This document shows positions 2,681 to 35,037 of a DNA stretch of 64,000 nt, in pieces; the stretch's first letter is position 1; every line of letters begins with the position of its first letter. The position numbers were made by a program, and so were the translations under genes. The notes under the pieces are model-generated. The model was not told the DNA's origin. It saw nothing but the letters and a program-made list of their open reading frames with translations, and made no database searches. The stretch comes from a bacterium (GTDB lineage Bacteria > Patescibacteriota > Minisyncoccia > Phycocordibacterales > Phycocordibacteraceae). The DNA is taken from the NCBI GenBank assembly GCA_023267755.1, contig JAHFMR010000002.1, positions 42,463 to 106,462 of the forward strand, given 5' to 3'.

Positions 2681-3310
2681 ATGGCTATTACCTCGGCAAA
2701 TGCGACCCAGCAATTCGTCCCGGTCAAAGAGATTCGGAATGGCGTCATCATCCTCAAAGACGGCAGTTATCGCGGCGTGCTCATCTGCTCCTCGGTCAAC
2801 TTCGGATTGAAGTCGGCTGATGAGCAGCACGCTATTACACTTGGCTTCCAGAATTTTCTCAATACGCTCGATTTCTCGATACAAATCACCATCAATTCAC
2901 GACGGATGGATTTGCGCCCTTATCTCGCGTTTCTTGCCGAGAAAGAGCCCGATCAAAAGAGCGAACTGATGCGCATCCAGCTCCGTGAGTATATCGAGTT
3001 CATCCGATCATTTACTGACCAGTTAAATATTATGACAAAGTCCTTTTATGTCATCGTCCCATACGCACCGCACTTCTCTGCCGCAAGCTCTATAGGCTTC
3101 CTCAAACACGATGCCGGTGCGACACATATTGCAGAAAGTTCCTTCGAAGAAGACCGTGCCCAACTTGAACAGCGTCTCTCGCTCGTCGGGGGCGGGCTTG
3201 AGAGCATCGGCGTGCGTGCGGTCCCGCTCGGCACCGAAGAGGTTATTGAGCTTCTGTACCGCTCTTTCAACCCCGGCGAGCTCGAGAATCCTATTCGTCT
3301 CGACAATTGA
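2681..3310 (+). CDS. Hypothetical protein, either an accessory T4SS component or a split-off VirB4 N-terminal domain
   Basis: The 209-aa ORF is translationally coupled on both sides. Its stop is 1 nt before the VirB4-like start and its start is 1 nt after the PrgI stop. There is no TM segment. Confidence 0.55.
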   Translation: MAITSANATQQFVPVKEIRNGVIILKDGSYRGVLICSSVNFGLKSADEQHAITLGFQNFLNTLDFSIQITINSRRMDLRPYLAFLAEKEPDQKSELMRIQLREYIEFIRSFTDQLNIMTKSFYVIVPYAPHFSAASSIGFLKHDAGATHIAESSFEEDRAQLEQRLSLVGGGLESIGVRAVPLGTEEVIELLYRSFNPGELENPIRLDN

Positions 3311-3311
3311 T

Positions 3312-5129
3312 ATGGCACTCCTCGATTTCCTCAACAAGAAGAAAGAAGAAGCTCCTTCCATCCTGCCGGTATTGCCGAAGGATATCTACAATAAGGGTGC
3401 ACTTGACCTTATCGACACCATCGCCCCGACAGCACTCAAGGTGAGTCCGCGTGAGCTGGAGCTCGGCGAGAAGTTTGTTCGTGCCTTCTACACAATCTCC
3501 TATCCACGCTATCTTTCTGACAGCTGGTTCTCACCGGTCATCAATCTCGATAAAATGCTCGATGTTTCTATCTTCATCCACCCCATAGACACCGAGCAGG
3601 CGTTGCACACCTTTCAGAAGAAGGTCGCTGAATATCAGAGCCAAATTAACGAGCGCGAAGCAAAGGGGCTCGTGCGCGACCCTGCTCTCGACACCGGATA
3701 TCAAGACCTCGAGAGTCTCCGCGACAGCTTGCAACAGGCCCAAGAAAAACTTTTTGACGTCGGGCTGTATCTCGCACTCTACGGCGACACTAAGGAGGAG
3801 ATAGAGAAGACCGAAGGGAACATTCGTGGCCTTCTCGACTCGAAGCTGGTCTACACCAAGCCGGCACTCTTCCAACAAGAGCAAGGCTTCCGTTCTTGCC
3901 TCCCACTCGGCACTGACGAGCTCCTCGTCAACTCCAAGCTGAACTCCTCACCGCTTTCCTCCATCTTCCCCTTTGTTTCCTTCGACCTCACGAGCGACCG
4001 CGGCATTCTCTATGGGATAAACAGACATAATTCTTCGCTCATTCTCTTCGATCGTTTCTCCCTTGAGAACTACAACTCGGTCGTCTTCGCGAAGTCAGGC
4101 TCCGGCAAGAGCTATGCCACTAAGCTTGAGATTATCCGCTCGCTTATGTTCGGTACCGACGTCATCGTCATCGACCCTGAACGCGAATATGAGCAGCTCG
4201 CTGAAGCGACCGGCGGACGCTCGTTCCATATCTCACTCTCCTCCGAGCACCACATCAATCCATTTGACCTTCCGCCGGTGAAGGAAGACGAGGACCCGAA
4301 GGATATTCTGCGTTCTAATATCATCAATCTCGTTGGGCTCTTCCGCATTATGCTCTCCGGTCTCTCGCCAGAAGAAGACGCGATTATTGATCGTGCGGTG
4401 AGCGAGACATATGCGCTTAAGGATATTACTGGCGATACTGACTTTACCGGTGCCGAGCCGCCGCTTCTCTCTGACTTCGAGCAAGTGCTCTCGGGGATGG
4501 AGGGAAGTGCTTCACTCCTCGAACGCCTTTCCAAGTACACCCGCGGCACGTGGGCAGGATTCCTCAATCAACCGACCAATATCGATATCAAGCAACAGTT
4601 TGTGGTCTTCTCGGTGCGCGATATGGAGGATGAACTGAAGCCGATCGCGATGTATATCCTCACGCACTATATCTGGAACGCGGTCCGTCACGAGTTGAAA
4701 AAGCGTCTCCTGATTATCGACGAGGCGTGGTGGATGATGAAGAGTGACGACACCGCAAGCTTCCTCTACAGCCTCGCTAAGCGCGGCCGCAAGTACTATC
4801 TCGGCGTCTGCACGATTACTCAGGACGTCGAAGACTTCCTTAAGAGCCCGTATGGTCGCCCGATTCTTACCAACTCATCGCTCCAACTTCTCTTGAAGCA
4901 GTCGCCCACCACTATCGATGTTCTCCAGAAGACATTCAACCTTACCGACGAGGAGAAGTATCTCCTGCTCGAAGCGGGGGTGGGGGAAGGGCTCTTCTTT
5001 GCCGGACTGAAACACGTCGCTATAAAGGTCGTCGGAAGCTACACCGAGGATCAGATCATCACCTCTGACCCCTCACAGCTCCTCGCGATAAAGAAGGAAA
5101 AGGATCGCCATGCCGCTGAGAAGAGCTAA
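3312..5129 (+). CDS. virB4: VirB4/TrbE/CagE-family type IV secretion ATPase
   Basis: It has a Walker A motif (VVFAKSGSGKSY), a Walker B/DEAW-like motif (LLIIDEAWWMM) and the C-terminal architecture of VirB4-like conjugal-transfer ATPases. The start is taken at MALLDFL because the upstream in-frame extension overlaps the preceding gene. Confidence 0.85.
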   Translation: MALLDFLNKKKEEAPSILPVLPKDIYNKGALDLIDTIAPTALKVSPRELELGEKFVRAFYTISYPRYLSDSWFSPVINLDKMLDVSIFIHPIDTEQALHTFQKKVAEYQSQINEREAKGLVRDPALDTGYQDLESLRDSLQQAQEKLFDVGLYLALYGDTKEEIEKTEGNIRGLLDSKLVYTKPALFQQEQGFRSCLPLGTDELLVNSKLNSSPLSSIFPFVSFDLTSDRGILYGINRHNSSLILFDRFSLENYNSVVFAKSGSGKSYATKLEIIRSLMFGTDVIVIDPEREYEQLAEATGGRSFHISLSSEHHINPFDLPPVKEDEDPKDILRSNIINLVGLFRIMLSGLSPEEDAIIDRAVSETYALKDITGDTDFTGAEPPLLSDFEQVLSGMEGSASLLERLSKYTRGTWAGFLNQPTNIDIKQQFVVFSVRDMEDELKPIAMYILTHYIWNAVRHELKKRLLIIDEAWWMMKSDDTASFLYSLAKRGRKYYLGVCTITQDVEDFLKSPYGRPILTNSSLQLLLKQSPTTIDVLQKTFNLTDEEKYLLLEAGVGEGLFFAGLKHVAIKVVGSYTEDQIITSDPSQLLAIKKEKDRHAAEKS

Positions 5130-5790
5130 GGTCGAGCCTGAGCCGCCGGTGATGACCTGGAGGAAGGCCGCACCTGTCCTCGCAGTAGCGGGCATCTTCG
5201 ACTTCCTGCGTCTCCTCTGTATCTTCTTCTGGTTCCTCGGGCCGGCGCTCGCAGCGATTTACTGCGTTAACAAAGTGAGTGGGTGGGTGGGGTCACTATG
5301 GGGATTAACCGCTACAGTGTGCGCCGCGACGTCTGGTGCCGCTGGCATTGCCGCCTCGGAAATAACCATACCGCTCGGTGCCATTCTCGCTGACGCGGCC
5401 GCCCTCATCGGCTTTCTCACGCTCGGGATGATTATTATTATGAGTAATAAGCGCATTCTGAAAACCGTCACTTCAGCCCCGCTCCAGTTCACCGCGGCCT
5501 TCGGCGTGAGTGCTATTCCTTTTATCGGCTCTGTCTTGCCTGCTTTCACCTTCATCCTCTGGCGACTGTATCGAGGACAGATTCGTGTCGAAAAAGCGGC
5601 CCATAAAAAATGGGGGGAGGAGACGGCTGCTGCCAGAAAGGAGACACGGAATCAGCAACAAGCGCAACTACTTCAGCAGCAGGCAGTCATACAGGCACAG
5701 ACAGCACAAGAGGCGGCCAATGATGAGGCTTTTGCTCAAACAGAAAATGAAGAAAACATATCCCCTGAAGAAGAGCCGTTGGCGGCCTAA
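5110..5790 (+). CDS. Hypothetical polytopic membrane protein with a Q-rich C-terminal tail, likely a T4SS-like locus component
   Basis: It has 4-5 TM helices and a C-terminal QQAQLLQQQAVIQAQTAQ low-complexity tail. It overlaps the virB4 stop by 20 nt, indicating operonic coupling. Confidence 0.55.
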   Translation: MPLRRAKVEPEPPVMTWRKAAPVLAVAGIFDFLRLLCIFFWFLGPALAAIYCVNKVSGWVGSLWGLTATVCAATSGAAGIAASEITIPLGAILADAAALIGFLTLGMIIIMSNKRILKTVTSAPLQFTAAFGVSAIPFIGSVLPAFTFILWRLYRGQIRVEKAAHKKWGEETAAARKETRNQQQAQLLQQQAVIQAQTAQEAANDEAFAQTENEENISPEEEPLAA

Positions 5791-5819
5791 CCTCCTTGTG
5801 CAGGCTATATACTAGAAGT

Positions 5820-6803
5820 ATGCGTCCGTATCTTCTGTCGGCACTTATTCTCTTGTCGCCCTTTGCCGCCCTCGCACAGCTCGGCGATACGCCGGGGAGT
5901 CTTGATCCTTTCACACTGTCAGTCAGCCCGCAGTATGTGGCCCCCTACAGCCGAGCGACCCTTTTTGTACAATCATCTTCCCTCAATCTCGCTAATGCGA
6001 CGATGGTTGTTACCGTTGCTGGCAAAGACATCTACCAAGGTAGTGTGCAGTCTATCCCTATTCCCGCAGGGAAGGCGGGAGTTGCTATCGTAGTGAGAGT
6101 GAAAATTACGTCCGGCGGCACGCCGTATACACAGACGGTGTCTATCCAGCCCCAGGACGTCTCCATTGTCGTGGAGCCGGTCTCTTCGGCTCCGGTGCTC
6201 TACCCCGGGAAGCCCGCGATACCCGCGGGGGGCAGCTCGCGCATCGTCGCGGTGGCAAATATGCGCACTGCCCGCGGCGCGCCGGTCGACCCGACGACGC
6301 TCTCGTATGCTTGGGCAGTCGATGGAACCCAGATTGAGAACTCCTCCGGCATTGGCAGGTCATCTCTCTTGGTCGCCTCGCCCATTGCCTATCGTTCTCG
6401 CCCGGTCTCGGTCACGGTAACGAACTCAGACAGCACGCTCATCGGCGGTGATTCGACTACCCTCTATGCAAAGGATCCGTCCGTGCGCATCTACGCAAAT
6501 GATCCACTCCTCGGTATCCGCTTTGACCACGCTCTCACGGAGACTTATGCTATCTCCGGTGCAGAAGCCACTCTCTACGCCGCCCCGTTTTCATTCCCGA
6601 CCACCGGCGGCGCTCCGCTCCTCCAGTGGTTCCTTAATGGCGCTGTAGCACAAACAGGCGCTTCTATAACGCTCCGGCCGACTGGAAATGGGCAGGGAGA
6701 CGCCTCACTCTCGCTCACTGCCTCTGCTGGGCAGTCTACGCCGGCGACCGCGAGTCTCTCGCTCATCTTCGGTACCGCAAGCTCTAACTTCCTTGGCCTA
6801 TGA
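5820..6803 (+). CDS. Hypothetical secreted protein
   Basis: It has an N-terminal signal peptide (MRPYLLSALILLSPFAALAQ) and is Ser/Thr/Ala-rich and beta-rich. Its stop overlaps the next ORF start. Confidence 0.55.
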   Translation: MRPYLLSALILLSPFAALAQLGDTPGSLDPFTLSVSPQYVAPYSRATLFVQSSSLNLANATMVVTVAGKDIYQGSVQSIPIPAGKAGVAIVVRVKITSGGTPYTQTVSIQPQDVSIVVEPVSSAPVLYPGKPAIPAGGSSRIVAVANMRTARGAPVDPTTLSYAWAVDGTQIENSSGIGRSSLLVASPIAYRSRPVSVTVTNSDSTLIGGDSTTLYAKDPSVRIYANDPLLGIRFDHALTETYAISGAEATLYAAPFSFPTTGGAPLLQWFLNGAVAQTGASITLRPTGNGQGDASLSLTASAGQSTPATASLSLIFGTASSNFLGL

Positions 6804-7450
6804 AACGTCTGACCCTCACTTCTTTTATCCTTTTCCTCCTCTTTACCTCTTTTGCTACGCTCGCACACGCAACAGGGTTCGTCCCGCTCGCTCCTATCTC
6901 TGGCCTCACGACAGTCCAGCCGACAGATGCCGGATTGTCTACCTTCTTCAACAATCTCTACAAATATCTCATCGGCCTTTCCGCGGCACTCGCGGTCATT
7001 ATGATTGTCTGGGGCGGGCTCGAGATCTCTACCCAGGACTCGGTCAGTAAACAGGGGGAGGGGAAAGAGAAGATACGCGGAGCGCTCTTCGGCCTCGCGC
7101 TCGTCCTCTCACCCGTGCTTGTCTTCACCATCATCAACCCCAAGATTTTGAACCTGTCGGTTGGTCTCGAAAAACTTAATGTGAATGCTCCGACGTCAAT
7201 TTTTGGGTCCTTTGGATCTTCCCCTTCATCTAGTCTTATTCCTAGCACCGCAACAAGTGGCCCCTCCTTCCCGCAATCTGAATTCCAGACAAGCTGTTCA
7301 TCATACTCAAATTCAACCAATGAAGTGATAATTGCATCTCTTCCAAAGACTTGCTCCGATTTCAATGGAACATCTATCGCTATGCTTTGTTGTTTCCCGA
7401 ATGGCGGTGTGAATACAACTAATTTCTCATGTTGCGTACACCCGAAATAA
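6800..7450 (+). CDS. Putative TrbC/VirB2-like pilin-type protein with a Cys-rich C-terminal extension
   Basis: A signal peptide is followed by two hydrophobic helices separated by a short polar loop (LSAALAVIMIVWGGLEIST ... ALFGLALVLSPVLVFTII), which is the VirB2/TrbC topology. The C-terminal tail contains 8 Cys. Confidence 0.45.
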   Translation: MKRLTLTSFILFLLFTSFATLAHATGFVPLAPISGLTTVQPTDAGLSTFFNNLYKYLIGLSAALAVIMIVWGGLEISTQDSVSKQGEGKEKIRGALFGLALVLSPVLVFTIINPKILNLSVGLEKLNVNAPTSIFGSFGSSPSSSLIPSTATSGPSFPQSEFQTSCSSYSNSTNEVIIASLPKTCSDFNGTSIAMLCCFPNGGVNTTNFSCCVHPK

Positions 7451-7455
7451 TTTCT

Positions 7456-8643
7456 ATGCGCCGAACACTTATTATTACCGGAATAGTCGTTGTCATCATC
7501 GGAGTCGGGGTCGCTATTTATTTCCTCTTCTTCGCGAAGCCGGCGATTACTGTCCCCGACACGACTCTTCCTTCTGCGGGGCAGGGGACCCTCCCTTCGG
7601 GGAGCGCTTCGGACGCTACAGCCCCCCAGAGCGGCCCCAAGGCCGTTACTGCGCGCTTGGTTAAGATTAGTGCTGGCCCGGTCGTCCCGGGCGAGGCGGT
7701 CGTTGATAAACGCGGATCCACTGCGAGCTCATCGCCTGAGGTTGTGGTCAATTACATCGAGCGCCAGAGTGGTAATGTCTTTATCTACTCTGAGACTACC
7801 CGGACACTCACTCGCGTCTCCAACAAAACACTCCCGGGTATCCAGTCCGCCGCGTGGCTCTCCGATGGCTCGGCGGCGCTGGTGCGGTATCTCTCGGGCG
7901 CGGACTCCTCCACGATAAACACTTACGCACTCTTCGCGACAAGCTCAGACGGGTTTTTCTTATCCCAAAACCTTACCGATGTCGCTGTCTCTTCGACAAA
8001 CATCCTGACGCTCGCCTCTGGTGTGAACGGTTCTGTCGCCTCACTCTCGAACAAAGACGGTTCCCATTCGGTCTCCATCTTCACTTCGCCGCTCTCTGCC
8101 CTCCGGCTCTCGTATGCGGGGAAGGATCATTATCTCGCTTTCACCAAGCCTTCAAATGCTCTTGCCGGTGGCGCATTTCTTGTTGATACCGCTGGGAATT
8201 TTTCCCGTGTCGGTGGCGCCCACAACGGTCTTGTCGCGCTTGCGAGTCCGAGCGGCAAATGGGTTCTTATCAGCTCGGCCCGCGGAGGCACGATGCAGCT
8301 GGAACTGGTAGACACTACTACCAGTGAGAGTATTGCTCTCCCGGTCGCCACTATCGCGGATAAATGCGTGTGGGCTACTGATGATTCGGCCATCTACTGT
8401 GGTGTTCCGACAACGTCTCCCGCTGGCGCTGTGTATCCTGATGACTGGTATCAGGGTGCGGTGCACTTCTCTGATCGTATCTGGAAGATTCAGGTCGCCG
8501 GCCGCTATGCACAGCTCGTGCTCGATTTTCCAAAGGAGGCCAAGGATGTGTTGGATGCCTGGGCACTTGCGCTCGACCCATCAGAGACGACGCTCGTCTT
8601 TGTTAATAAGAATGATGGCTCTCTCTGGAGCTATTCTCTATAG
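7456..8643 (+). CDS. Hypothetical membrane-anchored extracytoplasmic protein, probably a beta-propeller-like fold
   Basis: It has a single N-terminal TM anchor and a long Ser/Thr/Gly-rich ectodomain. It is the last gene of the co-directional block downstream of virB4. Confidence 0.5.
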   Translation: MRRTLIITGIVVVIIGVGVAIYFLFFAKPAITVPDTTLPSAGQGTLPSGSASDATAPQSGPKAVTARLVKISAGPVVPGEAVVDKRGSTASSSPEVVVNYIERQSGNVFIYSETTRTLTRVSNKTLPGIQSAAWLSDGSAALVRYLSGADSSTINTYALFATSSDGFFLSQNLTDVAVSSTNILTLASGVNGSVASLSNKDGSHSVSIFTSPLSALRLSYAGKDHYLAFTKPSNALAGGAFLVDTAGNFSRVGGAHNGLVALASPSGKWVLISSARGGTMQLELVDTTTSESIALPVATIADKCVWATDDSAIYCGVPTTSPAGAVYPDDWYQGAVHFSDRIWKIQVAGRYAQLVLDFPKEAKDVLDAWALALDPSETTLVFVNKNDGSLWSYSL

Positions 8644-9943: not shown

Positions 9944-11293
9944 ATGGACAAAGGGAATCCGAAGGAATTGTGGGAATACATTCTTACTCAGGTTGAACTC
10001 TCTGTTTCTCCAGCAAACTTCAATACATGGTTCCGAAACAGCTTCATCGTAAAGATTGAAGATGGAGTTATCTATGTCGGCGTGCCGAGTCAATTCTTCA
10101 AAGACTGGTACCTTAAGAAGTTCCACACACTCCTTCTAAAGATTGTCCGTGATATTTCTTATGAGTTCCGCAATATTGAGTATCTCATTGTGAAGGATGA
10201 ACGCCGTAAGGTGCAGAAGGAGGTAAAAAACACTCGTGGCGTACTCGAACTTCCGCTTGATGAGTTTTATATCAACAAAAGCGATAGTCTAAACCCACGT
10301 TACACCTTCGACACGTTCGTCATTGGTTCCTTTAATAATCTCGCTTATGCAGCAGCGCAGGCGGTGCTTACGCGTCCTGGTATCACCTATAACCCTCTCT
10401 TTATTTACGGTGACACGGGGCGCGGCAAGACCCATTTAATTCAAGCTATTGGTAATCAGTATAAGAAACAATATCCAGGGCGTAAGGCGTTTTATCTGAC
10501 TTCAGAGAAGTTTACAATCGACTACACTGACTCGGTTCAGGCCGGTACGGCAAACCGTTTTAAAGATAAATATCGTCAGTATGATCTGCTTATTATGGAT
10601 GATGTGCAGTTCCTATCGAAGAAACTAAAGACTGAGGAGGAGCTCTTCCATCTCTTTAACACACTTCACGACACTAATAAGCAGATTATTTTCTCCTCTG
10701 ATCGTGCGCCTGCGGCTATTCCTGATATAGCCGACCGCCTGAAGGGGCGCCTCGCGAGTGGTATGACCATAGATATCGGCGAACCCGATCCTGAATCCCG
10801 TATGGCGATAGTGAAGAGGAAAGCTGCTTCTCACGGGGTGATGCTCTCTGATGAAGTGGTTGAGTATGTCGCCACTACTATGAGTGGTTCTATTCGTGAA
10901 CTTGAGGGTATGGTGAATAATCTTATCTGTCACGCACAAGTAAAAGGTTTTGCGCCGGATATTCTTGAAGTTCGTCAGTCACTCCGATCATTTACCCGCC
11001 CCCAGAAGACTATTTCTGTAAAAAATGTCGTTGATAAGGTTGCTTCTTTTTATGGTATTGATGAAGAGAGTATTTATGAGAAGACTCGTAGAAGGGAGGT
11101 GGTGCGCCCGCGCCAAGTAATTATGTACATCCTTCGAGAAGATTTTAATATTTCATATCCCACTATTGGAACAAAACTTGGTGGTCGTGATCACACGACT
11201 GTTATCCACTCCTGTGAAAAAATAAAACGTGAAGTAGTTGTTGATACTGATCTCGCAAAAGAAATTCAGAATATTCGCACTCTTCTTGTATGA
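9944..11293 (+). CDS. dnaA: Chromosomal replication initiator DnaA
   Basis: The AAA+ Walker A GDTGRGKTHL and Walker B LLIMDDVQF motifs are present, together with a C-terminal DnaA-box-binding HTH domain (IGTKLGGRDHTTVIHSCEKI). Confidence 0.95.
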   Translation: MDKGNPKELWEYILTQVELSVSPANFNTWFRNSFIVKIEDGVIYVGVPSQFFKDWYLKKFHTLLLKIVRDISYEFRNIEYLIVKDERRKVQKEVKNTRGVLELPLDEFYINKSDSLNPRYTFDTFVIGSFNNLAYAAAQAVLTRPGITYNPLFIYGDTGRGKTHLIQAIGNQYKKQYPGRKAFYLTSEKFTIDYTDSVQAGTANRFKDKYRQYDLLIMDDVQFLSKKLKTEEELFHLFNTLHDTNKQIIFSSDRAPAAIPDIADRLKGRLASGMTIDIGEPDPESRMAIVKRKAASHGVMLSDEVVEYVATTMSGSIRELEGMVNNLICHAQVKGFAPDILEVRQSLRSFTRPQKTISVKNVVDKVASFYGIDEESIYEKTRRREVVRPRQVIMYILREDFNISYPTIGTKLGGRDHTTVIHSCEKIKREVVVDTDLAKEIQNIRTLLV

Positions 11294-11405
11294 CTTCTTT
11301 CAACGTATTGTACACAGGTTATCTTTTTGAAAAGAGTAAAAATAATCAATATATACAAGCATTTTTTGACCTATCCCCACTATCCACTATACTAATAAGC
11401 ATCGT
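11294..11405. promoter_or_regulatory. Candidate oriC segment (dnaA-dnaN spacer) with an AT-rich unwinding stretch and degenerate DnaA boxes
   Basis: The AT-rich run aaaagagtaaaaataatcaatatatacaag is followed by ctATCCCCActATCCACTa, two 7/9 matches to TTATCCACA. The spacer sits between dnaA and dnaN. Confidence 0.5.
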
Positions 11406-12506
11406 ATGATTATTTCTTTAGATAAAAAAATATTCTCTGAAGCAGTGCATACTGTTGCTCGTTTTGCAGAGCGGAAGAGTGGAACACTTCCTGTACTCTC
11501 ATCCATCCTTATTCTTGCTGGAGATGAAGGAATTAAATTACGTGCAACAAATCTTGAAACAGGTATTGATTTAAAACTCGAAGGAACCTGTACTACAAAA
11601 GGAGTAGTTGCTGTCCCCGCAGTAGTCTTACAACAAATTGCTGGATCACTCACAAATGAGGGGAGTATTACTCTTGAACACACTGGAGATATTCTTTCAC
11701 TCTCAAGCGGCACAGGGAAAAGTTCAATAAAAACAATTCCTTACGATGATTTCCCCTCAATTCCATTCCCAGAAAATCCAAAAAATAGAATCATCCTCCC
11801 GGGAATCATTTTAAAAAACCTCTTCACCACTATCGCCTCCTGCGCTTCCTCCTCAACTATCCGCCCAGAACTCTCAAGTATCTATCTTTCTATTGAAGGA
11901 GGAGTATTAACAGCTGTTGCAACAGACTCATTCAGGCTCGCAGAAAAGAAAGTTCCCCTCACTAATAAAGGGACACAAGGAAAATTCCTTATTCCCGCGA
12001 AGAATGCACTCGATATAGCGCAAGCACTTCCAGATGACGATATTATTATTTCATTTGATGAGCACCAATGCGCTTTTGTGAGTCAGGGTGGTATGCTCGT
12101 TTCGCGTCTTACGAACGCAACCTACCCCGACTACCGGCAAATAATTCCAAAAGAGTCTGTTGTTGAAGCGGTAATACTTAGGAAAGATTTTGAGACCGCA
12201 CTAAAACGAACAACTATCTTCTCAGATGCATTCCAGAAAATACGTATCAGCTTCGATCAGAAGAAGAATAAATTTATATTATTCGCGCGAAATACTGATA
12301 TTGGAGAATCCACCGAGACAATCTCTGCAAACATATCTGGAACTGCACTCGACCTCTCGTTTAATCACCGGTATCTCTCAGCGGTGCTCGCACTTACTAA
12401 TGCCGAGAGTCTCTCGCTTCTTGCTGCGGGTATCGGCCGCCCACTTATCATCAAGGGTGTTGGAGACACCTCACTCCTCTACCTCGTTTCACCGATGAAT
12501 CAGTAG
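11406..12506 (+). CDS. dnaN: DNA polymerase III beta sliding clamp
   Basis: It is 366 aa, has a three-domain clamp pattern and lies immediately after dnaA. Confidence 0.9.
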   Translation: MIISLDKKIFSEAVHTVARFAERKSGTLPVLSSILILAGDEGIKLRATNLETGIDLKLEGTCTTKGVVAVPAVVLQQIAGSLTNEGSITLEHTGDILSLSSGTGKSSIKTIPYDDFPSIPFPENPKNRIILPGIILKNLFTTIASCASSSTIRPELSSIYLSIEGGVLTAVATDSFRLAEKKVPLTNKGTQGKFLIPAKNALDIAQALPDDDIIISFDEHQCAFVSQGGMLVSRLTNATYPDYRQIIPKESVVEAVILRKDFETALKRTTIFSDAFQKIRISFDQKKNKFILFARNTDIGESTETISANISGTALDLSFNHRYLSAVLALTNAESLSLLAAGIGRPLIIKGVGDTSLLYLVSPMNQ

Positions 12507-15996: not shown

Positions 15997-16551
15997 ATGC
16001 AAAGAAACAAGCTCGTCATCGCGCTCGCCCTCACCACTGCCGTCTCAGCGTCTATTATGATGATCTCTGTCGCCTGGCGAGCTGGCTATGCTGATGGTTT
16101 CGTAAAGGGTGCTTCAGCGAAGCAACCACAAGGTCAGACACCAGCAGAAGTGAAAACTATCGTGGGGAAGATCAGTGGTATTACTGGTACGACAGTCACG
16201 ATACAAACATATATCACCGGATCAGCGAAACCTGTTACCTACCAGATTGGTACCAATTCTAGTACCACGTTTGAGCGGATGATACAAAAAGACCAGAAGA
16301 CATACCAAGCCGAACAAGTCACCTTTAGTGCGAAACTGAAAACAGCAAGGGCAAATGGTACTGTGACTCCTCTTGGTCCGATTCCTCCCGCCCCATTTAC
16401 TTTGCAAAAGAGTTCTCTAATCAATCTTCGTATAGGGGATGTTATTTTAACGATAATGCCTAGAAATACTCCAGCATCAGAGACACCTGTTGCGACAAGG
16501 ATACTTTTTGAGACTTTTCCTCAAACAGCGTCCTCATCACCACTACAATAG
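15997..16551 (+). CDS. Hypothetical membrane-anchored protein
   Basis: It has an N-terminal TM/signal segment and a Thr/Gly-rich ectodomain. A TACAAT -10 element lies 16 nt upstream. Confidence 0.5.
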   Translation: MQRNKLVIALALTTAVSASIMMISVAWRAGYADGFVKGASAKQPQGQTPAEVKTIVGKISGITGTTVTIQTYITGSAKPVTYQIGTNSSTTFERMIQKDQKTYQAEQVTFSAKLKTARANGTVTPLGPIPPAPFTLQKSSLINLRIGDVILTIMPRNTPASETPVATRILFETFPQTASSSPLQ

Positions 16552-16570
16552 ACATGCTGGAAAGCTTTGT

Positions 16571-18211
16571 ATGAAAAAGCGAAACATCCTCCTGATTTCA
16601 ATTTTCGCGGGAGTTGGGATGTTCTCTCCGATACCAGTCGATGCCCAGGCAGGGAATTGTTCTACCCTATATCTCACTCTCACTACCAATACTCAGAACT
16701 ATAGCGTCTATACTGCCGCTGTAGCGGCGGGTTGGAATTACGGCATGCAGGTCGTGCTCACAATAAACAGCGGCGTGTATGTATGGTCTGACAGTACGTA
16801 TCTCCCAGCGCTTGATACTTGGGGATTCCCAGAGAACACCGGCCTGACTATCATCAACAATGGGTACATCATTGGTAAGGGTGGAGATGGCGGGGGTTAC
16901 TTCTATATAGTCCCGCTTATTTATGGCCAGAATGGAGGGGACGCTATGTTCGTTACTATTCCAGTGACTATAGACAGTTCGCAAGGGTATATTGCAGGCG
17001 GGGGCGGTGGTGGTGGCTCTGGCGGTGGTGGTGGCGGTGGCGGCGCTGGTGGCGGTACTGGGGGTACTGCCGGGGGAGCGTATTATTTGGTTAGTGGTGG
17101 TATTGGGGGTAGTGTTGGAAATATAGGAAATGATGGAATAGGAGACAGAGAATTAATACCATCGGGTTTAGGCGGCGGTGCCGGAGGAGGAGGAGGAGCA
17201 TTTGGCGGTGGTTTTGGTAGTGCAAGTGGCGGTGGTGGCGGGAGAATACTCCCGGGAGTCGGTGGTAGCGGAGGTCGTGGTAATGCTGGCGGTTCTGGAG
17301 GTAATCCAGGTCTCCAAACTACTAGTGGTTATGGTGGTGATGGTGGTGGCGGTGGTGGCGGTTGGGGAGCTGTGGGGGGTGCAGGATACGCTAGCACAAT
17401 TGCGGGTGGGCAAGGGGGTAGGGCAATTAATACAAACGGCAATTTAATTACTTGGATCGGCGGACTCCCGGCCGGGCACGTGTTCGGTGATATCTTGCCG
17501 GCCCCAACTCAAACACAATCCGTGATCTGTTGCGCTCCAAACTCAGGCACGTTCTGCTCCGTCTCAAATGCGTGTGGTCAGGCTAATTACGGCATTACTC
17601 AATGTGACGGCTCCTGTTCCGCTTTCACTCTCCCAAATCCTTATGGGTATGGCACCTCCTGCACCTCCTCTCCCAACATCTGTGGACAGGCCAATACAGG
17701 AATCATTGATTGTGGTGGGACGTGTACCGCAACCGTGCCCGCTCTACCATCTAACTATGGCAATCTCTGCACTTCCGCTACGAATGCTTGTGGGAATAAT
17801 GTCGGAACAGTCAGTTGTGACGGAACGTGCTCGGCAACTGCACCATTCGTACCATCTAACTACAACACCCCCTGCACCCTTACTTCAGCAGCTAACGGCT
17901 GCGGTATGACCAACACGGCAACAGGCACCTACAACTGCTCTGGTGTCTGTGGTGTTGCCGCTCCCGCTACTCCCGCCAACTCCCTCTGCACCCCTCCTCC
18001 CGCTCCCACTATCTCCGGTCCTTATCAGAACGGACCATCCCTCATCAACCCCGCTTATGCCTATGATCCTCTCGGCTACCAAGTCTTCGCTCAGGCCACG
18101 AGCCCCTATGCCACTAATCCCGCAGTGGATTCGCATCTCACCTACTACTTCGAGTATTCTACCGATGGAGTGAACTGGACGAGAGGGGAGTGGGCGTCGC
18201 GAGTGAAGTAG
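16571..18211 (+). CDS. Secreted glycine-rich protein with four tandem Cys-rich repeats (putative surface/adhesin protein)
   Basis: It has a signal peptide (MKKRNILLISIFAGVGMFSPIPVDAQA), poly-Gly tracts of about 145 aa and four repeats of about 36 aa of the form C-x5-CGQAN-x-G-x3-C-x-G-x-C-x-A-x6-NYG. Confidence 0.7.
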   Translation: MKKRNILLISIFAGVGMFSPIPVDAQAGNCSTLYLTLTTNTQNYSVYTAAVAAGWNYGMQVVLTINSGVYVWSDSTYLPALDTWGFPENTGLTIINNGYIIGKGGDGGGYFYIVPLIYGQNGGDAMFVTIPVTIDSSQGYIAGGGGGGGSGGGGGGGGAGGGTGGTAGGAYYLVSGGIGGSVGNIGNDGIGDRELIPSGLGGGAGGGGGAFGGGFGSASGGGGGRILPGVGGSGGRGNAGGSGGNPGLQTTSGYGGDGGGGGGGWGAVGGAGYASTIAGGQGGRAINTNGNLITWIGGLPAGHVFGDILPAPTQTQSVICCAPNSGTFCSVSNACGQANYGITQCDGSCSAFTLPNPYGYGTSCTSSPNICGQANTGIIDCGGTCTATVPALPSNYGNLCTSATNACGNNVGTVSCDGTCSATAPFVPSNYNTPCTLTSAANGCGMTNTATGTYNCSGVCGVAAPATPANSLCTPPPAPTISGPYQNGPSLINPAYAYDPLGYQVFAQATSPYATNPAVDSHLTYYFEYSTDGVNWTRGEWASRVK

Positions 18212-20073: not shown

Positions 20074-21726
20074 TTAGTACGGGAGGTCGACAGCACCAGC
20101 GACTTCAGCGAGAGAGCTGATGCCTGCAAGCGCCTTGATGACACCATCTTGAGCCATCGTGAGGTAGCCCTGCTTGCTCGCCATTTTTGCAATCTGATTT
20201 TCAGCAGGATTATCGCGGAGGAAGTCGGCGAGCTCATCGTCCATAAAAATCGCTTCATAAAGACCGACGCGGCCGTGATAGCTATCAACATCTATCGGAT
20301 CCCACACCGTCTCTATCTTTTCAGGAATAAGCGACTTGTCCGCGAGCGGCTCAAACACTTTAGCAATCATCGTCTTCTCCTCTGCAGTGAGCGGACGTTC
20401 TTTCCGCTTGTCCGGATTGAGCTTGCGGATGAGGCGCTGTGCCATCGAGACAGTGACCGCCGAACCAAACGATTTCGGGTCTGCACCGAGGTCGACAAGG
20501 CGCGGGAAAGTTCCTGCCGCATCATTGGTGTGGAGTGTCGAGAAGACGAAGTGCCCGGTGAGTGCTGCCTGGATAGCGATATCTGCTGTCTCGGCGTCGC
20601 GGATTTCACCGACCATAATGATGTCCGGATCCTGACGCACGATTGACTTCAACCCTTCGGCGAAGGTGTACTTGGTTCCCTCCACCTGCGTCTGCACGAT
20701 GCCGTCGAGATGATACTCGATTGGGTCTTCTATCGTAATAATCTTTGTTTCGGGTGAATGGATCTCGCGGAGGAAGGAGTAAAGCGTGGTGGTCTTACCA
20801 GAGCCGGTGGGGCCGGTGGTGAGCAGCATACCGTTGGGCCGACGAATTTCTCGTTCGAGACGTTCAAGGAGCTTGGGGTGGATACCGAGTTCCTTATAGG
20901 AGACCTTGGTCGCTTCGGGGTCGAGAATACGCATCACAATAGACTCACCATAATTGCCGGGGATGAAGGAGATACGCGTCTCGATCTGACTCTCGCCGCG
21001 CACGATACTAAAGCGCCCATCTTGAGCCTGGTTTGTGACATTCAGCTTCACTCCCGAGAGCAGCTTGATGCGTGAATTAAGTTGGTGATACGTTGCTGGA
21101 TCAAAGAAGAAAGCGTCAGAGAGGAGACCATCGATGCGCAGGCGCAGGAGCGTCTTCTCCTCGCCCGGCTCAAAGTGGACGTCAGAGGCGCGCAGAGAAA
21201 AGGCTCCGGCAAAGATTGTCTCGAGGACGCGCGAAACACGATCAAGCGACTTCTCGGTCACCGCCACTTCAAGCTCATCCTGAAGCTTCCCCGAGGAGAG
21301 CTTCGTGAGCGTTTCTTCGGTAACCGTAAAGACGCCCGACTTCGATTCGGTCGCGAAGGAGAGCTCGCTATAGCGTTCAAAAGCCTTATCAAGGCTCTTC
21401 CGCGAAACGAGGAACGTCTTCATCGAGTAACCGCGCTCGGCGAGATCGGCGGCGAGCTTATTGAGCGCTTGGCTATTTGGCGTATGTATCGCGACCGAGA
21501 GCACCTTCGCCGCCTTCGCGAAGGCGGCAGCCTCAGCGGCACGCGCGTCTGCCTCGGGGATGATGCGAAGCGCGTCCGTGTCAATCTGCTTCAGCGAGAG
21601 GTCGACATAAGGTATGTCGTACTTCTCGGAGAGGATGCGCGCGACATCTTCTTCTTCGCGTTCGCGCACTTCAGCAAGCTCGGCATCAACGTGCGTGGTG
21701 TCGAAAGGGAGGTCCATATACGTCAT
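20074..21726 (-). CDS. pilB: Type IV pilus assembly / type II secretion ATPase (PilB/GspE family)
   Basis: It has the Walker A motif GPTGSGKTT, the Asp box, the His box and an N-terminal GSPII-like domain. The start is taken at MTYMDL, internal to a longer ORF. Confidence 0.9.
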   Translation of the reverse strand: MTYMDLPFDTTHVDAELAEVREREEEDVARILSEKYDIPYVDLSLKQIDTDALRIIPEADARAAEAAAFAKAAKVLSVAIHTPNSQALNKLAADLAERGYSMKTFLVSRKSLDKAFERYSELSFATESKSGVFTVTEETLTKLSSGKLQDELEVAVTEKSLDRVSRVLETIFAGAFSLRASDVHFEPGEEKTLLRLRIDGLLSDAFFFDPATYHQLNSRIKLLSGVKLNVTNQAQDGRFSIVRGESQIETRISFIPGNYGESIVMRILDPEATKVSYKELGIHPKLLERLEREIRRPNGMLLTTGPTGSGKTTTLYSFLREIHSPETKIITIEDPIEYHLDGIVQTQVEGTKYTFAEGLKSIVRQDPDIIMVGEIRDAETADIAIQAALTGHFVFSTLHTNDAAGTFPRLVDLGADPKSFGSAVTVSMAQRLIRKLNPDKRKERPLTAEEKTMIAKVFEPLADKSLIPEKIETVWDPIDVDSYHGRVGLYEAIFMDDELADFLRDNPAENQIAKMASKQGYLTMAQDGVIKALAGISSLAEVAGAVDLPY

Positions 21727-21841
21727 ATTACCATCCGCACACGCTCCAAAGCAGGGGGCTTGACAAAGTACCATTTGGGGGTATATAATAGCCCTAGGCC
21801 GTTGAAGGTAGACGGTACCCCACAAACTTAGGAGGTGCGCC

Positions 21842-22156
21842 ATGAAAAACCTTTCCGCTGTTCTTTTTATTGTCCTCACGACAGTCTTGGGCGGATGTGC
21901 GACCTACAACGTCAGCACGACGTCCACTCCAGAGCCGACGTCACGAGCGCCCCAGCAAACACCCGCGCAGCAGCAAGCAGCAGAATGCGCCGCACCTGGC
22001 GAATGGGTGCTGACGGGCGGCCGGTGGGTGTGCATCGCCAAGCCGGTAGTGATCGAGAGGCCGGTTGCGGTGTATCCGTACTACTATCCGCCGCTGATGT
22101 ATTACTACCCGGCAATCCGACTGGACTTCCGGTTTGGTGGTGGGCACCATCGGTAA
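21842..22156 (+). CDS. Hypothetical lipoprotein
   Basis: It has a signal peptide with a lipobox (LGGC), a Pro/Gln-rich linker and a Tyr/Pro-rich C-terminus. Confidence 0.5.
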   Translation: MKNLSAVLFIVLTTVLGGCATYNVSTTSTPEPTSRAPQQTPAQQQAAECAAPGEWVLTGGRWVCIAKPVVIERPVAVYPYYYPPLMYYYPAIRLDFRFGGGHHR

Positions 22157-33939: not shown

Positions 33940-35037
33940 ATGTCTTTCGGTTTTAGTGAAAAATTGCGCACTGCTTTTGCACCGCCTCGATACCTTGCAC
34001 CACCGCTATCCGGCATTGATCTATCAGCCAGCGGCGTAAAGGCGGTACGTCTTGTCCAAAGCCCTGCGGGACTTACGCTTGGAAGCTATGTAGAAGAGCG
34101 ACTCGCGCCAGGAGCCTTTGCTGAAGGAGAGATTGTCGATCGCACGGCGGTTGTCGCGGCGCTTTCTGCAGCCGCAAAGGCAGCAGATATTTCGGCCGCT
34201 AATGCGGCGCTGCCGGAGTCAAAGTCGTACCTTTTCGAGACGACGGTTCAGAATGCATCAAGGGTCGAGTGGCGCACCACAATCGAGCAGCAACTCGACG
34301 AGCTTATACCACTGCCACCGCCCGACGTCGCTTTCGATATCGTGAGGATAGGACAGAGCACAGACGGAGGCGTGCGAGTCGCGGGGGTTGGGTTCGCACA
34401 CCGTATTATCGATGATACGCTTGCCGCATTTGACCAAGCGGGCGTTGAGATTCACGCGCTCGAGGGAGAGCCATTTGCGATGGCACGAGCGCTTATCCCC
34501 GCAGGAGATGCCGCGACCGTGCTCATCATCGACGTGGGTAAAACGACGACGAAAATCTCAATTGTCGCTGGACGCATCCCGCGCTTCGCGACGACCATCG
34601 GCATCGGCGGTCACGCGCTCACGCTCGCGGTGCAGAAGCACTTCGGCGTGACCGAAGCAGAAGCACGCAAGGTGAAGATTGAGCGAGGTATCGTCCCGGC
34701 TCCCGGCAACGAAGACTATCTCGCCGCGATGCTCTCGACAGTCTCTGCGATTCGCGACGAGATATTGCGGAGGCTCGAATATTGGCAAGAGAAGGCTTCC
34801 CTCACCGAGGCACACGAGCCAGTGTCGCGCGCGATTCTTGCCGGCGGAAATGCGTCGGTACGCGGGCTCCCCGAATATCTCGAGGGGGCGCTCGGAATCC
34901 CGGTCGCCGCCGGAGACGTGTTCACCAATCTTGCGTCAAGAGACACATGGATTCCGGAGCTCGACTACGCCGAGTCACTCGCGTACGCGACCGCAATCGG
35001 TCTCGCACTCCGGGACGATACACACCTCTATGCATAG
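33940..35037 (+). CDS. pilM: Type IV pilus assembly protein PilM (actin-like ATPase)
   Basis: It has an actin/HSP70-fold pattern and is in gene order with pilN and pilO, overlapping the pilN start by 8 nt. Confidence 0.8.
   Translation: MSFGFSEKLRTAFAPPRYLAPPLSGIDLSASGVKAVRLVQSPAGLTLGSYVEERLAPGAFAEGEIVDRTAVVAALSAAAKAADISAANAALPESKSYLFETTVQNASRVEWRTTIEQQLDELIPLPPPDVAFDIVRIGQSTDGGVRVAGVGFAHRIIDDTLAAFDQAGVEIHALEGEPFAMARALIPAGDAATVLIIDVGKTTTKISIVAGRIPRFATTIGIGGHALTLAVQKHFGVTEAEARKVKIERGIVPAPGNEDYLAAMLSTVSAIRDEILRRLEYWQEKASLTEAHEPVSRAILAGGNASVRGLPEYLEGALGIPVAAGDVFTNLASRDTWIPELDYAESLAYATAIGLALRDDTHLYA

Follow-up and report, generated by a model that had tools for sequence, protein, structure and literature searches.

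Why does a pilin gene next to virB4 on a patescibacterial chromosome carry a long cysteine-rich tail, and what could such a tail be for? The question is raised by an open reading frame (ORF) at positions 6800..7450 (+) of a 64-kb stretch of contig JAHFMR010000002.1 (assembly GCA_023267755.1), hereafter referred to as the window. The ORF runs from ATG to TAA, encodes 216 amino acids (aa) and was confirmed as real. The answer that we regard as reasonably probable is that it codes for the single VirB2-like pilin of a chromosomal, origin-proximal type IV secretion system (T4SS) of an ultra-small, Kaiserbacteria-like member of the Paceibacteria, and that this pilin displays a disulfide-bonded tail module, which is exchanged by recombination.

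Family assignment and layout of the pilin

The predicted protein matched the Pfam family PF18895 (T4SS_pilin) with 39 bits (gathering cutoff 26.6), aa 44-104 aligning with model positions 3-63 of 71. The TrbC model (PF04956) was aligned over positions 13-88 of 98 with E = 0.001, at a score below its cutoff (19.7 vs 27.9 bits). A homologue search yielded 712 homologues, the best 120 of which were used for the family statistics given below. PF18895 was found in 121/121 proteins of the set formed by the pilin and these homologues, and TrbC was matched at E <= 0.01 in 90/121 (best 1.3e-6). The PF18895 score, the virB4/dnaA setting, and a signal peptide (assigned by hydropathy and the -3/-1 rule only) followed by a two-helix hairpin place the protein, as judged by sequence, in PF18895, with a VirB2-like architecture. 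It is not filed as a demonstrated member of PF04956, the TrbC/VirB2 family, whose cutoff it fails; a distant relationship to TrbC/VirB2 is nevertheless plausible. Membership in the type IV pilins failed as well: the Sec signal is hydrophobic and ends in AHA, there are two hydrophobic helices, and the G26-F27 pair (in GFVPLAP) is present without a Glu at +5.

The layout of the gene is as follows.

6800..7450 (+), pilin gene: VirB2-like core, linker and 6-Cys module; PF18895 match
6800..6868 (+), predicted signal peptide of the Sec type, aa 1-23 (MKR, a hydrophobic run and AHA, with T following); hydropathy, -3/-1 rule, AlphaFold2 helix 3-22
6869..6925 (+), predicted mature N-terminus: conserved GFVPLAPI.GLT, then a short variable segment; alignments A1, A2 and A3
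6926..7033 (+), helix 1 of the hairpin, aa 43-78 (FFNNLYKYLIGL...WGGLEIST); AlphaFold2 predicted local distance difference test score (pLDDT) 74-88, many invariant columns
7034..7078 (+), polar, basic turn, aa 79-93 (QDSVSKQGEGKEKIR); hydropathy minimum
7079..7135 (+), hydrophobic helix 2, aa 94-112; hydropathy, AlphaFold2 helix 82-112
7136..7174 (+), conserved junction motif INP.ILNLS.., end of the core; invariant N113, P114, I116 and L119
7175..7294 (+), Ser/Thr/Pro/Gly-rich linker, aa 126-165, predicted disordered; pLDDT <50, no secondary structure
7295..7447 (+), 6-Cys module, aa 166-216, C-x18-C-x11-CC-x12-CC; six Cys invariant in the tail class

In the hydropathy profile three segments were hydrophobic (aa 1-23, ~52-75 and ~91-112), and the tail contained none. 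A-H-A (aa 21-23) closes the first of these segments and is compatible with signal peptidase I. When AlphaFold2 was given 121 sequences, a helical hairpin (43-78 / 82-112) was obtained with pLDDT 74-88 and only the core was resolved; with 5 sequences the model was poor (pLDDT 48). The stretch LSAALAVIMIVWGGLEIST corresponds to aa 60-78, KQGEGKEK to aa 84-91, and the C-terminus of the tail reads CSDFNGTSIAMLCCFPNGGVNTTNFSCCVHPK. A basic luminal loop is conserved in VirB2/TraA pilins (10.1101/2022.09.25.509369).

An earlier, sequence-only reading of the window had described this ORF as a VirB2/TrbC-type pilin with a signal peptide, a helix, a polar KQGEGKEK loop and a second helix. The ORF and all peptide strings quoted there are present, hydropathy and the AlphaFold2 hairpin agree with the topology, and the pilin assignment is borne out by PF18895 and the virB4 operon. 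The check by TrbC/VirB2 hidden Markov models that it had proposed came out divided, PF18895 lying above the cutoff and TrbC below. Its description of a Ser/Thr-rich, Cys-rich tail of about 90 aa with two CC pairs holds: depending on where the tail is taken to begin, it comprises ~91-100 aa, abounds in Ser (20), Thr (9), Asn and Pro, and has two vicinal CC pairs. The eight cysteines counted at the time are in fact six (166, 185, 197, 198, 211 and 212). The tail had also been called unusual, which is true in comparison with proteobacterial VirB2; within the Paceibacteria family nearly all members are Cys-rich-tailed.

The cysteine-rich tail

The number of cysteines in the tail was even in 119/120 of the best homologues and in 52/52 complete pilin ORFs of an independent set, the GTDB species representatives. 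Cysteine made up 5.4% of tail residues vs 0.27% of core residues in the best homologues, whose tails had a median length of 115 aa past the INP.ILNL motif (maximum 254 aa). The layout is common to the family: the core is followed by a T/S/P/G-rich linker (median 33.5 aa to the first Cys) and then by a Cys module that ends within ~5 residues of the C-terminus.

The tail class of the window, C-x18-C-x11-CC-x12-CC, was also found in P0001, P0003, P0005, P0083 and L004. In this class 6/6 cysteines are invariant vs 2/45 non-Cys positions (Fisher p = 1.6e-6). Since the same tail class recurs with six invariant cysteines, the tail is genuine coding sequence and not a chance extension. The positive-inside rule places the basic turn in the cytoplasm, and the tail would consequently be extracytoplasmic. 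In both AlphaFold2 models the CC pairs lay, at low confidence, on opposite strands of a beta-hairpin. Taken together, the tail is a genuine and constrained module, probably disulfide-bonded and predicted to be extracytoplasmic.

Searches with the tail alone gave no match in Pfam, in PDB or by word-indexed search. When the tail was compared by phmmer with 1.84 billion representatives, only the protein's own cluster was related; six other matches were discarded as FG-GAP-like or other repeat proteins scoring by summed repeats. Sortase and N-glycosylation motifs were likewise rejected, as the LPKTC stretch and the N-x-S/T sequons of the tail are not kept in orthologues.

MdbA-like oxidoreductase and VKOR are enriched in genomes of the candidate phyla radiation (CPR) (10.1101/335083), and a secreted protein with 20 Cys past its signal peptide is encoded in the window. 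Oxidative folding of the tail outside the membrane is for these reasons plausible. The 20-Cys protein (16490..18211 (+), likely start ~16571) has a long low-complexity region rich in Gly, behind which a four-Cys motif, C-x6-7-C-G-x-x-N-x-G-x3-C-x-G-x-C, is repeated 4-5 times. It has no Pfam match, and its GC content at third codon positions (GC3) of 0.47 is below that of most window genes.

C-terminal trimming of TrbC/VirB2-type propilins is established, and the disordered linker would be open to a protease. It was thus considered that the tail is a pro-region, cut off in maturation as in RP4 TrbC and either discarded or freed as a soluble disulfide-rich peptide. Even Cys counts, invariant cysteines, lengths up to ~250 aa and at least 23 classes (see below) would however be unexpected for a discarded propeptide; moreover, the alignments revealed no conserved cleavage motif past the INP.ILNLS junction, and a TraF-like peptidase was not recognised in the operon. 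We regard a discarded or released pro-region as decidedly unlikely, and a module retained on the pilin as the better account of the tail.

Exchange of tails between strains

BLAST clustering divided the tails into at least 23 unrelated classes carried by a core that is 60-83% identical. Two populous ones, class 0 and class 1, had 26 members each in this set and have many more in databases. Median core identity was almost the same for pairs of the same class (73.1%) as for pairs of different classes (72.2%), and the nearest core neighbour had the same tail class in only 29/104 cases. By these comparisons, tail class is uncoupled from core relatedness. The closest relative with a different tail class, P0002, illustrates this: it is 83% identical to the window's pilin through residue 138, with an almost identical signal peptide, and past that residue shows no similarity, having a 10-Cys tail. 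Conversely, the relatives that share the 6-Cys tail of the window have cores that are only 59-63% identical.

The replacement was also seen at the DNA level, in two pairs of related contigs, each 97-100% identical in the core and the downstream gene but with unrelated tails. L058 and L059, which come from different samples, are ~100% identical upstream and in the core to ~codon 114; their tails are at random-level identity, and 98% identity is resumed just past the stop codon. The pair L060 and L061, obtained from one sample, had the same pattern, with 650 nt of the downstream gene 95-100% identical in DNA. Breakpoints fell at ~codon 114-140 in the window's pilin and P0002 (Q/P0002), in L058/L059 and in L060/L061, and similarity between tail alleles disappears directly past the INP.ILNLS junction. 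Because both contig pairs sit in the same syntenic slot, the different tails are alleles of one locus and not paralogues. Contigs often end at the pilin gene, which fits a strain-variable site. A metagenome scan for alternative tail alleles of the window's exact lineage gave no matches.

The otherwise unrelated tails of L060 and L061 share their first ~25 residues, including the first Cys pair (CTVT...AVCTTQ), a hint of modularity, and of breakpoints, within the tails too. The idea that the junction serves as a nucleotide-level anchor for recombination was rejected, as synonymous sites vary normally there. Carriage by phages was dropped too: relatives of the pilin were not found in IMG/VR. Another identity step was noticed in L002 (ERZ27279563 k141_5545982), a metagenome contig of 1094 nt corresponding to window 6368..7461, which is ~80% identical to the window up to ~6870 and 100% identical from there on. 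The ~80% part comprises the upstream gene and the signal-peptide codons, and the 100% part runs to the end of the pilin gene. Either recombination or chimeric assembly would explain the step.

The tail could also be an effector or toxin domain of the polymorphic kind, like CdiA-CT or the C-terminal domains of Rhs proteins, delivered by a conserved scaffold. This would fit the abrupt change to unrelated C-terminal domains right past a conserved motif, the many alternative classes and the coexistence of alleles in one sample. There is, however, no immunity gene that varies with the tail: the gene downstream is 95-100% identical behind unrelated tails. Pfam found a toxin or enzyme domain in 0/121 proteins, and the tails are small, S/T/G/N/C-rich, Sec-exported and topologically extracellular. 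A toxin function is for these reasons very improbable.

It was also considered that the diversity is made in place, either by a diversity-generating retroelement (DGR), an element common in CPR genomes, or from silent cassettes like those of the Neisseria pilE/pilS system. Searches of the 64-kb window by blastn and tblastn, however, yielded no second copy of the tail, no template repeat and no silent cassette, and a second pilin core is absent from it. The tail classes are, besides, unrelated in length and Cys pattern, and do not look like point-mutated versions of one scaffold. Such an origin of the diversity is hardly to be expected, and exchange of whole tails between related strains is the explanation that we prefer.

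Composition and rates of divergence

The border between core and tail is also visible in base composition. GC3 of the pilin gene is ~0.73 for the core and only 0.35 for the tail (window 7160..7447), where 0.60 would be expected from amino acid composition and window codon usage (z = -5.1). A core-to-tail drop was seen in 48/50 GTDB pilins (means 0.62 and 0.42, p = 1.4e-9) and in orthologues. Recent horizontal transfer of the window's tail was therefore rejected as an explanation, the drop being family-wide and kept in orthologues. Low GC3 was observed elsewhere in the window as well: dnaA and dnaN (9944..12506), in a region with a GC content of 0.42, have values of 0.43 and 0.35 vs 0.6-0.7 in most window genes. 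The same was found in L004 (0.44 and 0.32) and, more weakly, in L001.

Between the window and L004, cytoplasmic proteins are 84-91% identical, envelope-exposed T4SS proteins only 50-64%, and the tail is the most diverged part. When L001 was included, the picture was the same for the exposed proteins encoded in 5110..8643 (50-64%) and for VirB4, DnaA and DnaN (84-91%). Judged from these identities, the whole exposed part of the T4SS apparatus is fast-evolving. Within the pilin, the hairpin is conserved, and variation is found in the tail and in an N-terminal segment (aa 38-47). A conserved buried hairpin with variable exposed parts fits the picture of outward display.

Operon and genomic context

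The pilin gene is the fifth of six tightly spaced ORFs on the + strand. The other members are listed here.

2681..3310 (+), VirB4 N-terminal domain as a separate 209-aa ORF; NF045971 positions 1-119, E = 2e-6
3309..5129 (+), VirB4 ATPase, 606 aa, monoderm CD1110 / MPF-FATA type; NF045971, TraG P-loop, AAA_10, DUF87
5110..5790 (+), membrane protein of 226 aa, conserved in the operon; three hydrophobic segments by hydropathy, syntenic in L001, L004 and L059
5796..6803 (+), 335-aa secreted protein with N-terminal hydrophobic signal; hydropathy, syntenic in L001 and L004
7429..8643 (+), protein of ~395-404 aa with N-terminal membrane anchor, likely start ATG 7456; hydropathy, syntenic in L001, L003, L004 and L058

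The VirB4 ATPase ORF scored 375.8 bits (cutoff 325) with NCBIfam NF045971, the CD1110-type VirB4. VirB4 is encoded in two ORFs also in L004 (229 + 606 aa) and L059 (a 211-aa PF26593 TraC-like ORF + 605 aa). Because the same split occurs in these loci, it is a lineage feature and not a frameshift error. The 226-aa membrane protein had no match in Pfam, NCBIfam or PDB searches, the 335-aa secreted protein had only sub-threshold Pfam matches and none in PDB, and family and PDB searches with the ~400-aa anchored protein were without a match. The stop codon of the 335-aa protein overlaps the pilin start codon (ATGA), and the gene of the anchored protein forms the conserved 3' flank of the tail cassette.

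Downstream of the operon, YidC is encoded on the minus strand, followed by DnaA and DnaN. The distance from VirB4 to the pilin is 1.7 kb, and dnaA begins at 9944, 2.5 kb further downstream. The order VirB4, protein with three transmembrane segments, secreted protein, pilin, ~400-aa protein, YidC (-), DnaA, DnaN was found in L001, L003, L004, L058 and L059; the genomes of the relatives are labelled Candidatus Kaiserbacteria, Paceibacterota or Parcubacteria. The locus is the chromosomal, origin-proximal Patescibacteria T4SS of Quinonero-Coronel et al. 2025 (PMC12102498). As in the published system, the window ORFs checked included neither a relaxase nor a coupling protein.

Only one pilin core, that of the 6800..7450 ORF, is present in the 64-kb window. 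The metagenome-assembled genome WY3.bin61 (JAKAJB01) contains two pilin loci, L029 and L048, with different tails, one of 128 aa and 6 Cys, the other of 77 aa and 4 Cys. Either pilin genes are multiple in some relatives or the bin is made up of mixed strains. The window also holds type IV pilus genes, for a PilB-like T2SSE ATPase (20074..21879 (-)) and PilM (33940..35037 (+)), and the organism therefore has type IV pili in addition to a T4SS-associated pilin.

Model for display and exchange of the tail

Most likely, the tail forms a module that is stabilised by disulfides, displayed at the surface, and diversified and exchanged between strains. The following sequence of events is proposed. The Sec signal peptide (aa 1-23) would be cleaved off, and the two conserved hydrophobic helices with the basic turn would insert into the membrane as a hairpin. 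With the turn in the cytoplasm, both termini of the pilin would lie outside the membrane and, if polymerisation resembles that of VirB2/TraA, on the outer face of a filament. Known pilins of this type assemble with phospholipid into helical filaments whose subunits have their termini turned outward (10.1101/2022.09.25.509369). Each subunit would then carry, at its C-terminus, a flexible Ser/Thr/Pro linker of ~40 aa and a module of ~50 aa with three disulfides. The cassette to which this module belongs would be hypervariable, the module being one of its alleles. Recombination would swap the tail among related strains, with the core on one side and the downstream gene on the other, both conserved, as homology arms.

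The sequence-only reading had suggested a tip or adhesin module. A tip location finds no support: since the window has one pilin gene only and the module is part of it, every subunit would be decorated and not the tip. An adhesin function is still plausible. The T-pilus has a diameter of 76 A and a rise of 13.4 A per 5 subunits (10.1101/2022.09.25.509369), from which an outer surface of only ~640 square angstroms per subunit can be calculated. On so small an area, one module per subunit would require a flexible linker, such as the family indeed has. For the tail itself, partner recognition or evasion of pilus-targeting agents is the role that we infer, that is, specific contact with the surface of a partner or host, or escape from agents that recognise the pilus, e.g. 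phages. The data suggest that the tail allele could bear on which partner cells are bound. We hold only tentatively to the more far-reaching possibility that every subunit of a T4SS filament has an exchangeable disulfide-knotted mini-domain and that the swapped, origin-proximal cassettes set the host or partner range in the manner of phage receptor-binding proteins; this would seem rather doubtful at present.

Several observations weigh against display on a filament or against parts of the model. Homology of the pilin to characterised pilins is weak as far as sequence profiles go. In hhalign the core profile A3 gave a non-significant match to A. tumefaciens VirB2 (P = 0.16), the VirB2 sequence having been confirmed at 100% identity; the 17 columns aligned in this weak match do fall at the equivalent start of helix 1. 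Profile searches of PDB with the pilin core gave only spurious matches to transmembrane segments of G-protein-coupled receptors, and Foldseek comparison of the pilin model with PDB returned generic helical hairpins, none at E <= 0.001. We know of no experiment showing a VirB2-type filament in any Paceibacteria, and a filament has so far not been demonstrated for this pilin class. Monoderm T4SSs are normally pilus-free (PMC12102498, PMC12857230). The modelling of the tail that the sequence-only reading had proposed gave the facing CC pairs on a beta-hairpin, but with pLDDT from <50 to ~60, a range in which the model fixes neither the fold nor the disulfide pairing. No DsbA, MdbA or VKOR was found among the ORFs checked in the 64-kb window. 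The DNA-level replacement of tails was seen in relatives, the window's own lineage having been compared at the protein level with P0002. Finally, the C-terminus of the pilin may be processed as in RP4 TrbC.

The missing pili of monoderm systems, the lack of a demonstrated filament and the marginal homology to polymerising pilins would all be accounted for if the hairpin were only an anchor. The protein would then be a non-polymerising surface protein of the cytoplasmic membrane with a variable Cys-rich ectodomain near the T4SS channel, and a linker followed by an ectodomain is indeed typical of anchored surface proteins. The core is however 60-83% identical between relatives, and dozens of its residues, among them those of the basic turn, are invariant; this is far more than an anchor needs. 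The TrbC model is aligned over nearly its whole length and is matched by most relatives, and a cultivated Saccharibacterium cannot do without its VirB2-like pilins (PMC10633639). We therefore consider a mere anchor unlikely and retain the view that the protein is a pilin subunit.

Relation to known systems

The closest published counterparts are the PF18895 pilins of Patescibacteria (PMC12102498, PMC10633639), which belong to the same family as the window's pilin and, like it, have an MPF-FATA virB4 and dnaA/dnaN nearby. They are small, divergent in sequence, often encoded in arrays of 2-11 genes, and come mainly from Saccharimonadia and Microgenomatia. The window, by contrast, has one pilin gene only; its core is highly conserved and is followed by a long Cys-rich cassette at the C-terminus. 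Cysteines or disulfides on pilins are not mentioned in either paper. Nor was any mention of Cys-rich or disulfide C-terminal domains, or of tail replacement, on these pilins found in full-text searches, in which subscription journals were thinly covered. Nor was a description found there of globular domains appended to VirB2-type pilins, or of a locus that sets specificity at the population level in CPR. The family of the pilin and its genomic setting are already published; for the cassette-like Cys tail no description was found.

A. tumefaciens VirB2, F TraA and RP4 TrbC resemble the window's pilin in the signal peptide, the two hydrophobic helices, the basic loop and the association with VirB4. 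The window's pilin differs in its sub-cutoff PF04956 score, its short signal peptide of 23 aa and its monoderm host. Above all, VirB2, TraA and TrbC end a few residues past helix 2, whereas the window's pilin continues for ~100 aa with linker and disulfide module. Type IV pilins, such as those of the Neisseria pilE/pilS system, share with it the combination of a conserved hydrophobic assembly region and a variable, exposed, disulfide-stabilised C-terminal part, and in Neisseria this part also varies by recombination. Fold and machinery are unrelated, however: the window's pilin has a Sec signal, no prepilin-peptidase leader and no Glu at +5, and silent cassettes like those of Neisseria were not found in the 64-kb window. 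CdiA-CT and Rhs proteins are similar in having a sharp border past a conserved motif and many unrelated C-terminal alleles per scaffold, and dissimilar in their co-varying downstream immunity gene and their toxin domains, both of which are lacking here.

With its pilins included, the Patescibacteria T4SS is the only T4SS shown, by work on a cultivated Saccharibacterium (PMC10633639, PMC12857230), to be essential to its own bacterium. Conjugative-type pilins are otherwise known as helical hairpins with nothing appended; the pilin of the largest CPR class adds a tail to this plan. The pilin gene can be used as a marker locus for strain-resolved metagenomics, and it is a place where assemblies tend to break. 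The fast-evolving, strain-variable, disulfide-rich and putatively outward-facing module is a candidate determinant of partner specificity or evasion in these organisms.

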